From NCBI GenBank assembly GCA_038867615.1, contig JAWBYA010000003.1, positions 32,001-96,000 on the forward strand: 64,000 nt of DNA, read 5' to 3'. Made by a program: the position numbers and the translations under genes. The stretch comes from Sulfolobales archaeon (GTDB taxonomy: Archaea; Thermoproteota; Thermoprotei_A; Sulfolobales; AG1). The notes beneath the pieces were generated by a model. It searched no databases. It had not been told where the DNA came from and saw only the letters and a program-made list of their open reading frames with translations. Positions 17,949 to 23,571 of this stretch are shown piece after piece; position 1 is the stretch's first letter, and each line of letters starts with the position of its first letter.

Positions 17949-19148
17949 GTGTGTATTGTGAGAGTTGTTCTCGCATACTCTGGGGGGCTTGATACAACCA
18001 CATGTATAGTGTGGCTAAAAGAGAAATACCAGGCAGAAGTGATAACGGTTACCGTAGATGTAGGGCAGGAGGAGGATTTCGAAGACGTTGAGAGAAGGGC
18101 ATTTAGGGCGGGAGCTTCGCAACACTATACTATAGATGCCAAAGAGGATTTCGCCAGGGGGTACATTTTCCCTGCTATAAAGATGAACGCTCTCTACGAG
18201 GGTTCTTATCCACTCAGTACAGCACTGGCCAGACCCCTTATAGCTGAGAAAGTGTTAGGAGTAGCTAAAAAGGTTGGTGCCGACGCCATAGCCCATGGGT
18301 CTACGTCAAAGGGAAATGATCAGGTTAGATTCGATCTTACAATACGGGCTCTAGACCCCGATATAAAAATAATAACCCCAGCGAGATCATGGGGGATGAC
18401 CCGAAAAGACGAGATCGAGTATCTAAGAGCACGGGGAATAGAGGTTCCCAACGTTAATAAAAAATATAGCGTTGATGACAACCTCTGGGGAAGAAGCATA
18501 GAGGGTGGAGAGCTTGATGATCCCTCGCACCCCCCGCCCGAGGAGGCGTTCAAATGGACAGTATCTCCTGAAAAGGCTCCTAACAACCCGCTTACTCTTG
18601 AGATAGAGTTTAGCCAGGGAGTTCCGGTAGCGATTAACGGTGAAAAGATGGATCCTGTGAAGCTGATAAATACATTAAATATTATTGGAGGATCCCACGG
18701 TGTTGGGAGAATAGATCATATTGAGAACAGGCTTGTTGGTTTCAAGTCTAGAGAGGTGTACGAAGCCCCTGCTGCCACTATACTTATAAAGGCCCACGAG
18801 GATCTGGAGAAAGCTGTGCTGACACCGAGGGAGCTGAGGATAAAGAGGATGGTCGAACCTATATGGAGTGATCTAGTATATAACGGGCTCTGGTTCGAAC
18901 CGGTGAGAAGAGCTATTGAGGCTCTGGGAGATGAGATGAATAGGTGGGTCACAGGATCGGTGGGGGTGAGGATCTATAAGGGCTCAGTAACCGTGGTATC
19001 GAGGAAAAGCCCGTATATGATATACAGCCAGAACATAGCAAGCTATGATGTGGGATGGTATCCATCTGAGGAGAAGGCTATAGGCTTTATAGAGATATGG
19101 GGAATGCACTCCCTCTCAGCACTTAGGGTGAGGAGAAACGCTCTATAG
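17949..19148 (+). CDS. argG: Argininosuccinate synthase
   Basis: [31 protein letters not shown]. Confidence 0.98.
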
Positions 19149-20493
19149 AGAGCCCCTCCTCGGTAAGGAGAACCTCAACTGGTACACCTCATCACTGAAA
19201 TATGATGAGATGATTCTGGAAGAGGTTATCGAGGTAGAAAGAGCTAGGGTAAAGGCTCTTGTAGATGATAATATAATACCTAAAAGCGATGGGGAGAAGA
19301 TACTTTCATGCCTTGAGGAGCTTAAAAAAGAGCCGAAAAAGCTCCTAGAATATGGCGAGGCTGAGGATGTTTTCGAAGCAATCGAGCTATATCTACAGAG
19401 CAGGATAGGCAGTGCTGCAGGCTGGTTCTCTCTTGGAAGGAGTAGGAATGACCATATAGCTGCTATCCTTAGGCTAAAGACGAAGAAATACATAGCACGG
19501 ATAATGCTCCTCCTCATAAGGCTAAGAAGAGCCCTGATAGAGAAAGCCAGGATCTATGCATCAGCCCTCTTCCCAGCATATACCCATACACGCGAGGCCC
19601 AACCAATAACGTTTGGACACTATCTGCTCAGCATAGACGAAGAGCTCGAGGACCACTTAACCTTGTTAGAAAAAACCCTCGAGATCGTTGATGTGATGCC
19701 ACTAGGAGCCGGGGCTGTTGGAGGAACCACTGTGAATCTTGATAGGGATAAGATAGCAAGGGAGCTGGGTTTTGCCAGACATAGTAGGAACACACTCTAT
19801 ATGGTTTCGAGTAGGGGTTTCCTAATACTCCCGCTTAGCATAGTTACAAGCCTGTTGGCATTCCTAAGCAGGATTACACAGGATCTGATAATTCTATCGA
19901 TGAGTAGATATGGTGTCATAAAGATCCCAAATAAGCATGCGGCTACAAGTAGCATAATGCCCCACAAGGTGAACCCAGTCACGCTTGAGATACTAAGGGC
20001 AAGGGCCGGCGAGTCCTTGGGGCTATTCACATCTATCCTGGATATCTATAGAGCAACACCCAGTGGGTATAACCTGGATTTCCAGGAGATCAATAGGATC
20101 TCCTGGAGGATCTTTGACAACGCTGTAGAAGGTCTAACCATACTCCACGACCTATTCGGCAGCATTGAGATCGATGAGAAGAGATCTGAGGAGATCTCAA
20201 GAGATCCCGAGCTACTAACAGCAGACCTGGCCGAGATCCTATCTATAGAGAAAAGAATACCCCACAGAGAAGCACACAGAATCATTGCTAGCAAGATAAG
20301 GGAGAAAGGATCCAAGGGCTTGCTAGAGGAATACCCACAGCTTAAAGACTCGATGAGCTTCTTAGAGAAAAAGAGGTACAGAGGATCGCCAAACCCTGAA
20401 GAGGTAAAGAAGTTCGCTAACGAGAAAGAAGCAAGGTTGAGAGAGTATGAAGAGAGGCTTTCAGAATTATTGAAACTGGCTGGAACAGGATAG
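19138..20493 (+). CDS. argH: Argininosuccinate lyase (probable ACG start; first ATG at 19210)
   Basis: [31 protein letters not shown]; follows argG. Confidence 0.93.
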
Positions 20494-20908
20494 ACATTAG
20501 ACCACCTACTTTCTATCTTTTCAATTACTTGAGACTACACCCTGATTCCCTGATTACATATGCCAAATTCCCGTGCGTTTTGTGATCGAGCACAAGTCTC
20601 TTCATCAATTAACCATCAATGGGGTTCTTAATATTTGATCTAAAACTACCATAGATCTTCCTATAGATATTAAGGTATATATTAAGAACCGTGCTATTTA
20701 GATCTTGCACTCCATACCTAAAGAATCTTTCTGACAAGCTATCCATATGAAAACGATCCAGCAAGCTCCCCCGATCTTTCATATACCGTGCCGCAGCTTC
20801 AATAATGATCCATGATGCTTCTAGCTTCTATTAATAACACTTAAAGTGTTAGTAAGTTATAAGTTAAAGAGAACCGCACATGCAAAAATCTTCGATTTGC
20901 ACGAACTA

Positions 20909-21064
20909 TTACCATTCCTCCTCTTCTTCCTCTTCCTCCTCCTCTTCGAACTCCTCTTCCTCTTCCTCAAACTCTTCTTCTTCGAACTCCTCTTCTTCCC
21001 ATTCTTCTTCGAATTCTTCTTCCTCTTCCTCCTCGAACTCTTCCTCCTCCTCGAACCTCTTCAT
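20909..21064 (-). CDS. 51-aa poly-glutamate micro-protein with interspersed Phe/Trp
   Basis: ATG...TAA frame MKRF-E5-F-E7-F-E3-W-E4-F-E4-F-E6-F-E11-W; mixed GAA/GAG codons; TTTATATATAA box upstream. Confidence 0.8.
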   Translation of the reverse strand: MKRFEEEEEFEEEEEEEFEEEWEEEEFEEEEFEEEEEEFEEEEEEEEEEEW

Positions 21065-21327
21065 TTAAGCGACCCATGATATATCTGGAGAACAGCTTAT
21101 ATATAAATCGGTTCCGAATTAAACGTTGTTCTTATAGTTAGCCTCGGCTAACCAGCAACTCAAACCCAGCATAGACCCCACCGCATCAAACCTGTTCTCC
21201 CTAATCCTCTAAGCACCTATGCCTATTACGTATCTGAAGCGTGATTAGGATAAGTCATCATATGCTGTTGATCAATGAGTAAGGTAATATTATTAGCTAT
21301 AGAGCAGATATACAATGGTGTGTTTCT

Positions 21328-22188
21328 TTGCTCATAATAGGTAGAGAGGAGGTAGATTCAGTAGTAGATCCACAGGGTCTTGTGGAGGATATTAGAAACG
21401 TTTACCTATCCCAATACATAGCTTTCGAGAGGGTCTCGAGTGTCGTCAGCGGATCCTGGTTTGGGATCATGAGAGGATTTCACGAGGAACTGGGATTTCT
21501 AGTTAAAATAGTGGGGATTTTCCCCCAAGCATATCCAAGGGTTAAGGGCGTTGTAGCGGTTATAGACCATGTCACAGGCGATCTAAAGGCCCTGATAGAT
21601 GGGTATAGTCTTACAGGCTGGAGAACAGCTGGAGCGTCAGCCCTTGCCCAGATCATTCTCGGGGGATACAGCATAGAGACCCTCGGGATCATAGGCGCAG
21701 GGACACAGGCTCTCTACCACCTAAGGGTCTTCACCAAACTCTTTAGAATCGGTAGGATCTTGATAAGTACGAGAAGCCCTGAAAAAATAAGAGATCTTGC
21801 TAGAGAGTTTGGGGCGGAGCATGTATCAACAAAAGATCTCAACGCGACTGCCACAACAGTTATAGCTGCAACAAACTCGACAGAGCCAGTGGTAATAGGG
21901 GATCTTTTATCACCGGGCTCGATAGTGATCTCAGTAGGCGCCCCGAAACCTGTGAGGGAGCTTGATGAGAGAACTATTCAGAGGGCTGGATGCGCGTTAG
22001 TAGATACACGCCACGGTGTTTTGGAAGAGAGCGATGACGTGAAGGGGATAGAAGTAGTAGAGATCGGTGAGGCACTTAGGGGGAAGAGGTGCGTCTTTAG
22101 AGACATAAAGCTATACAAATCTGTGGGGACATCTATACTAGATATTGCAGGAGCAATCCATATACTTAGAAGAATGGGTGTTAAGTAA
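21328..22188 (+). CDS. Ornithine cyclodeaminase/mu-crystallin/alanine dehydrogenase family protein
   Basis: LTGWRTAGAS, GIIGAGTQA, YKSVGTSILD. Confidence 0.9.
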   Translation: MLIIGREEVDSVVDPQGLVEDIRNVYLSQYIAFERVSSVVSGSWFGIMRGFHEELGFLVKIVGIFPQAYPRVKGVVAVIDHVTGDLKALIDGYSLTGWRTAGASALAQIILGGYSIETLGIIGAGTQALYHLRVFTKLFRIGRILISTRSPEKIRDLAREFGAEHVSTKDLNATATTVIAATNSTEPVVIGDLLSPGSIVISVGAPKPVRELDERTIQRAGCALVDTRHGVLEESDDVKGIEVVEIGEALRGKRCVFRDIKLYKSVGTSILDIAGAIHILRRMGVK

Positions 22189-22262
22189 AAATAATGTTTA
22201 CAACCTAATGGTAGTTTCTAGATATTTGCCTTACAACGTATTTAGCTATAAGGGATGCCCTT

Positions 22263-22574
22263 ATGTCTGCGCCAGAGATCTTTGTTGAGAAGACCAATAG
22301 AGGTATTAGGATAATTAATAAGAGCAATAAAAAGATAAAGGTTGTGACAGTGACTCTCATCTATAGATATACTGTCACATCAGCAACAACTAAAACTCAG
22401 AGCGAGTCTCCATATCTCTCTAAAACAGGGTCTGAGAGGATGAATCTTATGAAAGATCTAGAATCTGGATCCTCGTTTGAGGTTGAGTTCTATCCACCAG
22501 ATATACTTGTATCTGTAGAGCTCGTAATTGAGAGCGATAAAGCCAGACATATCATATCTAGAAACCTCGTGTGA
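22263..22574 (+). CDS. Hypothetical protein
   Basis: First gene of an overlapping run leading into ribB. Confidence 0.65.
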   Translation: MSAPEIFVEKTNRGIRIINKSNKKIKVVTVTLIYRYTVTSATTKTQSESPYLSKTGSERMNLMKDLESGSSFEVEFYPPDILVSVELVIESDKARHIISRNLV

Positions 22575-22906
22575 AGCTAATGCTACACAGAGGTGCGGCT
22601 TGGAAAAGAATCCCGGCCATTTTGGTATCAATAGCACTAGCTGTTTTTATGAGACTGCTAGAGGGAGTATCGATTGTATATCTAGCTGAACCAGTAACTG
22701 TGAGCGGGGCTATAACTAGCAATACAGGAGCCAATAACCCCTTACAGTCCGGTGATCCCTTTCATAGTTTGGTGAGGGATTATAACCTACTTCCAACAGT
22801 TATTGGGATAATAATTGGCATTATATTGGTCATTATTGGAATAGTTTATCGTATTGGCTATAATAGACCTGGTGGTGAAAAAAGTTATAGTGGAGAGAGA
22901 TGGTAG
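22571..22906 (+). CDS. Hypothetical membrane protein (2 TM)
   Basis: Two hydrophobic stretches; overlaps both neighbours. Confidence 0.6.
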   Translation: MKLMLHRGAAWKRIPAILVSIALAVFMRLLEGVSIVYLAEPVTVSGAITSNTGANNPLQSGDPFHSLVRDYNLLPTVIGIIIGIILVIIGIVYRIGYNRPGGEKSYSGERW

Positions 22907-23571
22907 ATTGGGAGAGAGTTAGGAGAGATCTGCTGGCTGGAAGGCCTATTCTCCTCTACGATTTTGCCGGACGTGAGGAGGAGGTTGATATGGTCTTTTA
23001 CGCAGGATCCATCAACTACAGAAGCATATATACTCTCAGAAGAGAAGCCGGTGGTCTCATATGCCATGCAATCTCAGAAGCTGTGGCAAAAGAGCTGGGT
23101 CTACCCTACCTAAGCGATCTGCTATCATCGATATCCCAGCTCTCGGGTCTCACGTCTAGAAGGCTTAGGTATGGTGATGCACCACCATATTCGATCTATA
23201 TAAACCACTTCTCAGTAAGGACCGGCATATCTGATAAGGATAGGGCTCTAACTATAAGAAGGTTTCACGACGTTGTGGAGCTAGTAATATCTGGCGCTCC
23301 CGAGGAGGCTAGAAGAATCTTTTATAGCGAATTCGTAGCCCCGGGACATGTCCCCGTGTTGGTGAGCAGGGGTATAGGTAGAAGGAGGGGGCATACAGAG
23401 CTAAGCATAGCTATCGTAGAAAAGCTAGGTCTCGCTCCGAGCGTTATTATAGCTGAGATGCTCGATGAGGGCGACTCCATGTCACTTGAGAAGGCTGAGA
23501 AATATGCTGCTGAGAAAGGCCTTATACTGATCAAAGGCGATGAGATCCTCAAGGAGGTGGGAAGCATATGA
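22900..23571 (+). CDS. ribB: 3,4-dihydroxy-2-butanone-4-phosphate synthase
   Basis: YDFAGREEEVD, TGISDKDRALT, PGHV, RRGHTE. Confidence 0.95.
   Translation: MVDWERVRRDLLAGRPILLYDFAGREEEVDMVFYAGSINYRSIYTLRREAGGLICHAISEAVAKELGLPYLSDLLSSISQLSGLTSRRLRYGDAPPYSIYINHFSVRTGISDKDRALTIRRFHDVVELVISGAPEEARRIFYSEFVAPGHVPVLVSRGIGRRRGHTELSIAIVEKLGLAPSVIIAEMLDEGDSMSLEKAEKYAAEKGLILIKGDEILKEVGSI

Follow-up and report, generated by a model that had tools for sequence, protein, structure and literature searches.

Can a stretch of DNA composed mostly of glutamate codons be a gene and, if so, what might its product do in the cell? The question is raised by a short open reading frame (ORF) in the genome of a Sulfolobales archaeon (assembly GCA_038867615.1). 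The ORF lies in a window of 64,000 nucleotides of contig JAWBYA010000003.1 (positions 32,001 to 96,000); this window is the whole stretch of DNA that was analysed, and positions without a prefix refer to it. At 20909..21064 on the minus strand it encodes a micro-protein of 51 amino acids (aa): 40 Glu, 6 Phe and 2 Trp plus one M-K-R start. By comparing sequences we show that this ORF is a genuine conserved coding gene under purifying selection, with strong selection on Glu content, on the spacing of aromatic residues and in most cases on an aromatic last residue. What is new here is the genomic position of the gene in many relatives, directly before abce1, which encodes the ribosome-recycling ATPase ABCE1. 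Where single items have to be told apart, genomes, contigs, loci and families carry our handles G, C, L and f, G000 being the genome of the window.

A conserved gene rather than a simple repeat

The purine-rich tract of GAR codons (R stands for A or G) lacks stop codons in any frame, and ORFs are also listed in its other frames; hence gene and repeat can be told apart by comparison alone. Within the window, the minus-strand ORF of 51 codons reported in the preliminary description is present with identical sequence, its 40 Glu included (ATG at 21064-21062, stop codon TAA at 20911-20909). Its codons are mixed as had been claimed, with 20 GAA and 20 GAG for Glu and 5 TTC and 1 TTT for Phe. Tandem Repeats Finder reported only imperfect repeats at the ORF (periods 3-36, 64-94% matches).

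We searched 41 genomes of the same order at the DNA level, read the loci individually and re-checked apparent negatives. A stand-alone orthologous ORF was verified in 37 of the 41, including the genome of the window itself and one ORF that is partly masked. Two genomes (G021 and G031) hold divergent, doubtful candidates only, and no orthologue was found in this search in G028 or in G009, which is 63% complete. At every locus fetched among these relatives the small ORF lies in the same frame. In the genus of the window it has the form M-K-R-F-(E/F/W/L)n-W with a length of 30-51 aa, all length differences being in frame, and in the sister genus the form M-V/A-P-K-P-L-R-F-(E/W/G/L)n. Other families of the order mostly carry a 'WW type' of 25-40 aa, for example M-F-E3-WW-E6-7-WW-E5-6-W-E4-W. 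The orthologues measure 22-74 aa, consist of 50-80% Glu, have W, F or L spaced every 4-9 residues and mostly end in W or F.

Between the window gene and each of its two closest congeners we counted 10 synonymous and 0 non-synonymous codon differences. Fourteen aligned genes contain 266 GAA, 254 GAG and only 7 GAT or GAC codons (520 GAR against 7 GAY); the near parity of GAA and GAG indicates that the third position is saturated between A and G, yet Asp is excluded. A stop codon follows at most one codon from the end of the tract in the Glu frame in 32 of 34 orthologous loci (0/34 for each of the other two sense frames), and an ATG stands just ahead of the tract in 32/34. As insertions and deletions are all in frame, changes are nearly all synonymous and boundaries are kept only in the Glu frame, a non-coding simple-sequence repeat was rejected. 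Likewise rejected was a conserved overlapping ORF in the Arg/Gly frame, the other frames being without kept boundaries; the frame of an upstream ATG differs between two genera, and so this ATG is not a conserved alternative start.

The preliminary description had argued for a stand-alone gene rather than a microsatellite, and the kept frame, start, stop, upstream box and T-run bear this out together with the almost exclusively synonymous drift. Frameshifting length variation in relatives, which it had named beforehand as speaking against a gene, came out the opposite way, since the range of 30-51 aa within the genus is always in frame. A purine-rich simple repeat that is open by chance would explain why the GAR tract is free of stops in all frames and why searches based on hidden Markov models (HMMs) find nothing. 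However, the data on orthologues, codons and boundaries refute it as far as comparative evidence goes. So does a codon pattern used as a detector, (GAR)6-T[GT]B-TRR, equal to (GAR)6-[W/F/C/L]-stop, which matches 100 of the 401 genomes examined in the window's phylum, while its reversed control matches 1 of 401. The chance that there is no gene here seems to us negligible.

The coding sequence at 20909..21064 (minus strand), supported by the ORF list, its orthologues, the codon comparison and the kept start and stop, appears to bring its own signals. The upstream box pointed out earlier is TTTATATATAA at 21107-21097 (21097..21107, minus strand), 33-43 nt 5' of the ATG; it is TATA-like and presumably an archaeal promoter, from which a short leader would be expected. 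Similar boxes (TTTATATATAAGC, CTTATATAAGC or TTTTTATAAGC) stand at equal distance in orthologues of two genera, despite different neighbours. Just 5' of the start, at 21071..21077 (minus strand), lies the motif ATGGGTC, which is found in 6/6 members of the genus and has the counterpart ATGGTGA in the sister genus; it is possibly Shine-Dalgarno-like or located at the transcript start. The inverted repeat TGCAAA...TTTGCA at 20881..20901 (minus strand), 8-30 nt past the stop and ending in T5 (20888-20884), is a presumed terminator. It is common to two syntenic congeners, and runs of five or more T (T5+) follow the stop in other genera.

The ORF sits in a gap of 834 bp between an argininosuccinate-lyase-like gene (19210..20493, plus strand) and an ornithine-cyclodeaminase-like gene (21328..22188, plus strand). 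An Rfam scan of 19000-23000 gave no match at E<=1, and ARAGORN found no tRNA near the ORF. Three hot-spring metatranscriptome runs were mapped to a 3-kb stretch with the repeat itself skipped in the mapping; two gave 0 reads and one gave 6, all on the neighbouring lyase gene. The 834-bp gap also holds, downstream of the micro-protein gene, a further ORF of 57 aa (20609..20782, minus strand). DNA of the congener G003 matches both sides of it (query 1-557 and 913-1001) and not across, so that this part of the gap is not conserved in G003.

Beyond the order, the pattern found at least 119 stretches in public species-representative genomes, of which 80 loci were read. About 29 of these are stand-alone archaeal micro-ORFs and seven are fusions, the rest being ends of unrelated, mostly bacterial, proteins. 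The stand-alone records are labelled Thermoprotei, Desulfurococcales, Acidilobaceae, Aeropyrum, Hyperthermus, Ignisphaera, Thermofilales, Caldarchaeum (Caldarchaeales), other thermophilic Nitrososphaeria and Bathyarchaeia. Within the phylum the pattern is frequent in some families (14/17 genomes in f22, 17/24 in f27, 10/12 in f34 and 7/8 in f21) and was not found in f14 (0/56) or f31 (0/12). Of the 105 matches in the phylum we read 40, chosen so as to spread over 19 families. Every one of the 40 encodes a peptide of this type, in 38 loci as a stand-alone product (22-74 aa) and in 2 as part of a fusion. The strict pattern under-counts, as f13 and f18 score 0 yet carry versions of 27-35 aa with shorter Glu runs.

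Other searches see very little of this family. Four micro-proteins compared with all of Pfam-A at E<=10 matched 0 families, where low-complexity filtering may hide weak likeness, and an NCBIfam scan of the peptide gave no match. A profile HMM built from 14 orthologues found 0 matches in the 401 genomes; it missed even the window's own genome, and its null result is therefore uninformative. A single-protein search of the 401 genomes returned 7 matches and missed known positives, and a homologous-protein search gave 5949 candidates, none of which scored. Ten out of ten exact orthologue sequences, the window's included, were absent from a collection of 15 billion proteins. The window sequence is present letter for letter in the ESM Atlas, where the nearest clusters (0.82-0.84) are unnamed and below the meaningful level. 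Literature on peptide motifs and on acidic small archaeal proteins held nothing relevant, though supplements of small-protein and Ribo-seq catalogues, which lie outside its coverage, could hold it. As far as these searches reach, the micro-protein family is undescribed.

Gene order around abce1

In the rest of the order, outside the window's family, we examined 20 loci with 6 kb of surrounding DNA, scanning 60 of their 80 closest ORFs. ABCE1, recognised as a protein of about 600 aa with twin ABC domains and Fer4_RLI, is encoded by the next downstream gene on the same strand, or past one small zinc-ribbon ORF, in 10/20 of these loci. It is nearby in 2 more of the 20: in L220 the micro-protein gene is inverted in the same slot, and in L233 ABCE1 lies upstream. 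A class V fructose-1,6-bisphosphatase follows ABCE1 in 8 of the 10 micro-abce1 loci. Cgi121 stands directly upstream on the same strand in 11/20; it was called by Pfam for 4 and for the others by BLAST chaining to Pfam-positive members and to the Cgi121 of the window's genome.

Phylum-wide, with 87 of 156 neighbour ORFs scanned, ABCE1 is downstream on the same strand in 11 of the 38 stand-alone loci, which brings in eight further families (f15, f20, f21, f23, f26, f32, f44 and f65). In those 11 loci the gap to abce1 is 57-90 nt, or one small Rpb9/TFS-like ORF lies between. Sua5 is the divergent upstream neighbour in 4/38 and in one locus from a metagenome-assembled genome (MAG). Among the MAG loci, which have flanks of 500 bp, an ABCE1 N-terminus is found downstream in 6/33, all six labelled Desulfurococcales.

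The survey was also carried out starting from ABCE1, using 29 loci of the phylum that are the best-scoring matches and not a random draw. An upstream micro-ORF was counted if it had 7 or more acidic residues in 10, carried 2 or more aromatic ones and lay no more than 900 nt away. Such an ORF is present in 8/29, on the same strand in 7 of the 8, and the positives include families missed by the strict pattern (f13 in 2/2, f18 and f30), with gaps of 43-60 nt. None was found in the loci of f14 (0/9) or f23 (0/7), nor in five genomes outside the phylum (0/5; labelled Thermoplasmata, Asgard in two cases, Woesearchaeota and Micrarchaeota). The order of micro-protein gene and then abce1 is seen in at least 17 families, and the other neighbours vary (cgi121, sua5, a 2-hydroxyacid dehydrogenase, an ABC ATPase). 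Gene order shows the linkage to abce1 to be deep and wide, not universal.

What stands between the two genes differs. A T5+ run is present in 11 of 17 micro-abce1 gaps, the other 6/17 being without one. In seven loci (L219, L221, L227, L228, L229, L231 and L234) a conserved element of 18 nt, GCCGTCACCACTCATCAT with small variants, lies between the stop of the micro-protein gene and the start of abce1. The reverse complement of GCCGTCACCACTCATCAT opens with a C-box-like ATGATGA, and at L229:2872-2927 (+) there is a weak Rfam match to the C/D-box family sR28 (25.2 bits with a gathering score of 39, E 0.008). Judged from these signals, the element is probably an opposite-strand C/D-box small RNA gene sharing the slot upstream of abce1. 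In several families a small Rpb9/TFS-like zinc-ribbon ORF of 92-108 aa, with an acidic C-terminus in f20, occupies the interval; examples are L260:2756-3031 (-), L273:2778-3092 (-), L220:3149-3472 (+) and L259:3049-3333 (+).

In the window's own family the gene has other neighbours. In 3 members of the genus these are the lyase and cyclodeaminase genes, and the 3 others have an unknown ORF of 301 aa together with Nop5; the sister genus has an NfeD-like protease there and G007 has Cgi121. The window's genome carries abce1 on a different contig, and its cgi121 is found at a distance of about 55 kb. At the window locus there is no downstream gene on the strand: after the stop come the hairpin with T5 and the 3' end of a gene that converges on it. 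Relocated copies, this one included, keep the promoter box and the terminator. Their translation-related neighbours comprise aEF2 (2 genomes of f51), class II aminoacyl-tRNA synthetases (3 loci), a tRNA-binding protein, an Obg/YGR210-type GTPase and Nop5, and Alba adjoins in only 2 loci. The genomic context (abce1, t6A genes, aEF2, aminoacyl-tRNA synthetases) points to the translation apparatus more than to chromatin proteins, t6A being the tRNA modification N6-threonylcarbamoyladenosine.

What the peptide might do

In the window peptide, which has a net charge of -38, only 4 residues precede the acidic tract; there is no Cys and the C-terminus is ...EEEW. AlphaFold2 gives one helix over residues 2-50 (pLDDT 95.9). 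A peptide that is too charged to fold alone and strongly helix-prone probably folds on a basic or hydrophobic partner surface.

Fusions of this tail with small metal-binding domains occur in other lineages. LysW-like ribbons (Pfam Zn_ribbon_LysW) carry it in a Methanomethylicia-labelled family (L067:504-785 (-), 30.2 bits with a cut-off of 27, as well as L253 and L254) and in Anaerolineae (L048:318-521 (+) and L100:279-521 (+), 54.4 and 48.5 bits). A Korarchaeum-labelled case, L030:210-521 (+), scores 26.2 bits, just under the cut-off of 27. The tails of these LysW-like fusions end in W or F and not in the canonical EDWGE. The gene next to L048 resembles, by eye and from its CxxxCxxC end, a lysine-2,3-aminomutase-type radical SAM enzyme. 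RimK matches were sought near the fusions of LysW and poly-Glu; their positions or contigs did not fit the fusion loci, the identity of the contigs not being established. Other fused domains are a rubredoxin-like ribbon (L078) and a DUF1540-like Cys-rich domain (L027 and L031, both weak). The fusions indicate a modular role of the tail at the level of the peptide, which argues against a role purely in cis as an upstream ORF.

Two further carriers of acidic tails were noted. The window's genome encodes a Cys-rich protein of 98 aa, belonging to no Pfam family, with an E11-L tail (G000:C7:9495-9794 (-), which is L160:1496-1789 (-)). This second, fused acidic-tail carrier of the genome has relatives in other families (L173, L186, L209 and L194). 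Asgard-labelled loci (L039:210-521 (+) and L041:504-815 (-)) encode a ribosomal-L22e-like protein of 104 aa ending in E6-7-F, with a Pfam score of 27.6 bits for L039 and a cut-off of 23.6.

Tentatively, we favour a helix-prone polyanionic micro-protein with aromatic anchors that acts in trans on ABCE1 or on translation. The mechanism that we infer, in its action in trans and its binding as in its partner and its effect on recycling, would be as follows. The gene would be transcribed independently from its own promoter, giving a free polyanion that acts in trans. This is suggested by the relocated copies that keep box and terminator, by the in-place inversion in L220, by the T5+ runs in 11/17 gaps and by the opposite-strand element in 7 loci; with the gene moved in the window's genus together with its own promoter and terminator, action in trans appears most likely. 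The ancestral position of the gene would be immediately upstream of abce1, which would make ABCE1 the likeliest partner or process, perhaps with other stalk-dependent translation NTPases. The aromatic residues would anchor the peptide on its partner. It could occupy a patch on nucleotide-binding domain 1 (NBD1) of ABCE1, of the type bound by the C-terminus of aP1 in archaea and by the N-terminus of eIF3j in eukaryotes, and occupancy of this patch would tune recruitment, ATPase or release of ABCE1.

Archaeal ABCE1 is activated when the acidic tail of aP1 attaches to its NBD1 with the hydrophobic end (PMC6125642). The eIF3j N-terminus reaches a similar site and eIF3j stimulates splitting by ABCE1, the authors describing a multivalent interaction patch (PMC7780240). 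As a possible ligand of this patch, a free peptide of acidic and aromatic residues encoded beside abce1 would be an obvious candidate. A more specific version of the preferred reading is possible and, in our view, doubtful: a dedicated free 'acidic tail' cofactor of ABCE1 that competes with or replaces the P-stalk tail at NBD1 and sets recruitment, firing or small-subunit release of ABCE1. Such a peptide would be the functional equivalent of eIF3j/Hcr1 in archaea, overlooked so far by gene callers.

Several points weigh against an ABCE1-linked role in trans. The suggested partnership comes entirely from gene order, and the genome of the window itself has abce1 on a separate contig and cgi121 some 55 kb off. 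Where the two genes are adjacent, separate promoters are probable, given the T5+ runs in 11/17 gaps and the oppositely oriented C/D-box-like element that is often between them, so adjacency could be an inherited position and no sign of a coupling in function. All archaea have ABCE1, yet no micro-protein gene turned up before abce1 in the loci of f14 and f23, and the pattern found none in f14 and f31; the micro-protein is therefore not an obligatory ABCE1 subunit. Relocated copies also adjoin genes for Usp (6 loci), PhoU (4 loci), MoeA and glutamate dehydrogenase. The likeness to the stalk tail is loose and generic, as aP1 of this genome ends in ...EEKKEVSEEELEQGLSALFG, a mix of E and K with an aliphatic end. 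The modelled helix of a peptide with a charge of -38 speaks of helix propensity only and gives no evidence of a stable fold. An amphipathic helix was rejected: among 42 peptides, a single one had its aromatic and hydrophobic residues gathered on one side of the helix at p<0.05 (p=0.044). Such a distribution fits scattered anchors better.

Might the peptide instead be a generic polyanion without a dedicated partner? Resembling nucleic acid and stable to heat, it could hold or chaperone many basic nucleic-acid-binding proteins (ribosomal or of the Alba/Cren7 type), or shield unfolding proteins in the manner of prothymosin-alpha, nucleophosmin tracts or 'Hero' proteins. The preliminary description had thought along these lines, proposing that the peptide mimics single-stranded nucleic acid, chaperones proteins such as Cren7 or ribosomal proteins, or buffers cations. 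The extreme charge, the scattered aromatics without amphipathic pattern, and a Glu content and spacing that are selected while the number of repeats is free to vary would all suit it. The same is true of the strong-looking promoter of its own, the many different genomic contexts and the occurrence mainly in lineages labelled hot-spring or thermophilic in their record titles, and neighbours related to ribosomes or RNA would also fit a chaperone of ribosomal proteins. We nevertheless consider it rather unlikely, as it gives no account of the constant slot upstream of abce1 in at least 17 families, Alba genes adjoin in only 2 loci and a bulk chaperone would require high abundance. Very high expression would likewise be needed by a buffer of cations or polyamines, or by an encoded counter-ion or compatible solute for K+, Mg2+ or polyamines in thermophiles. 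About 40 carboxylates per 51 residues, the 520 GAR against 7 GAY codons and the freely varying repeat number are what such a function would predict, but the aromatic punctuation, the C-terminal aromatic residue and the abce1 linkage stay unexplained, which makes it very unlikely.

The remaining alternatives take their cue from neighbouring genes. An accessory of the t6A machinery (KEOPS/Sua5), for example a mimic of the tRNA tail on Cgi121 or a small acidic subunit like eukaryotic Gon7, would agree with Cgi121 directly upstream in 11/20 same-order loci, in G007 and in 2 MAG loci, and with Sua5 divergent upstream in 4/38 phylum loci and 1 MAG locus. MiaB-family/TRAM genes adjoin in 3 loci, and archaeal members of the MiaB family make ms2t6A. 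However, the t6A neighbour switches, from cgi121 in one order to sua5 elsewhere, while abce1 stays, and the t6A genes may thus be old neighbours of abce1; there is also no match to Gon7 or any other Pfam family. KEOPS, moreover, already has a fifth subunit in archaea, described as Pcc2 (PMC9889334), and an accessory of this kind seems to us improbable. The peptide could also be the by-product of a regulatory ORF in cis, poly-acidic and difficult to translate, whose translation before abce1 senses recycling or ribosome stability, unrecycled ribosomes re-initiating on abce1. In work on bacteria and eukaryotes, acidic nascent chains make ribosomes less stable, and re-initiation downstream follows when ABCE1 is lost, and the ORF does lie on the same strand 57-90 nt before abce1 in many lineages, with 6/17 gaps free of a T5+ run. 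Yet the window locus, where hairpin and T5 are followed by a converging gene and no downstream gene exists, is not that of a leader peptide, and in many lineages the gene stands at a distance from abce1 and has a promoter and a terminator of its own. L220 has it in inverted orientation, the opposite-strand small-RNA-like element intervenes in 7 loci and the fusions of the same tail to small proteins argue for a function of the peptide, and we regard regulation in cis as quite improbable. Finally, an amino-group carrier tail of the LysW type, or a competitor for LysW-dependent enzymes, is called to mind by the LysW-like zinc ribbons with the same poly-E/W tail, by an EWGEE motif like the LysW end in some relatives and by the place of the window gene between argininosuccinate-lyase-like and ornithine-cyclodeaminase-like genes. 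But a Cys4 ribbon is absent from the peptide, whose last residue is Trp instead of Glu, and the Arg-related neighbours are kept in only 3/6 genus members. On other contigs the genome has two canonical LysW genes ending in GEDWGE, each beside a RimK/LysX-type ATP-grasp ligase (G000:C2:233307-233432 (-) and G000:C5:129578-129694 (+); L142 and L143). The copy on C2 also stands beside an ORF that by eye resembles N-acetyl-gamma-glutamyl-phosphate reductase. The genome therefore has a LysW-dependent Lys/Arg route, replacement of LysW was rejected, and any LysW-type role is highly improbable.

If the gene is translated, its product would be among the most compositionally extreme conserved proteins known, with about 80% Glu across the phylum, and it would mean that entire families escape standard gene callers and HMM searches. 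The abce1 link offers a concrete and cheap hypothesis on how ABCE1 is recruited, activated and released in archaeal recycling, a poorly understood step. Assays of peptide binding, ATPase and splitting exist for archaeal ABCE1 (PMC6125642). The finding also bears on the use by archaea of short acidic-aromatic motifs, which are widespread in eukaryotic regulation.

Comparison with known systems

How does the micro-protein compare with acidic proteins that have been studied before? The acidic tail of the P-stalk (aP1/P1/P2) is alike in being an unstructured stretch with a hydrophobic or aromatic end that becomes a helix on its partners, among them ABCE1 NBD1, aEF1A and aEF2 (PMC6125642). The micro-protein gene, for its part, shows linkage to abce1 and adjoins aEF2 in some lineages. 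The stalk tail, however, terminates a protein that is anchored on the ribosome, where its N-terminal dimerisation domain attaches to P0, whereas the micro-protein is a free peptide without such a domain. In this genome aP1 (contig C2) is a mix of E and K ending in LSALFG, unlike a peptide of about 80% Glu with W and F. In composition, acidic with a terminal aromatic, the two resemble each other in kind and not in sequence, and the micro-protein has no Pfam match to Ribosomal_60s (PF00428).

The N-terminal region of eIF3j is acidic with a key Trp. In eIF3j/Hcr1 this non-globular region contacts ABCE1 near NBD1, at a site similar to that of aP1, and the factor stimulates splitting (PMC7780240). 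Unlike the micro-protein, eIF3j is a eukaryotic factor built around a helical dimer core, and its C-terminal tail lies in the mRNA channel; no profile match to eIF3j (PF08597) and no relation in sequence were detected.

DSS1/Sem1 and CSNAP are free-standing, tiny and very acidic, and aromatic residues within their acidic runs anchor them on basic surfaces. The micro-protein differs in its far more extreme Glu content and its linkage to abce1, and Pfam gave no match to DSS1_SEM1 (PF05160). To our knowledge, the PCI-complex and BRCA2 partners of DSS1 are not expected in these archaea. LysW is a small acidic protein as well, its working part is an acidic tail containing Trp, and ribbons fused to the same poly-E/W tail exist elsewhere; the micro-protein, in contrast, lacks the zinc ribbon, the terminal Glu and a LysX neighbour and has no Pfam or NCBIfam match to LysW (PF21344, TIGR01206). 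A disordered polyanion of the prothymosin-alpha type could bind basic nucleic-acid-binding proteins with high affinity. Prothymosin-alpha and the nucleophosmin tracts are, unlike the micro-protein, eukaryotic, larger and of mixed D/E composition without regular aromatic punctuation, and no homology to them was detected; nor was there a Pfam profile match to Gon7, which is the fifth subunit of KEOPS in fungi and metazoa. The micro-protein falls within none of the families tested for membership. In kind it resembles the known small acidic cofactors, of which it is a far more extreme form.

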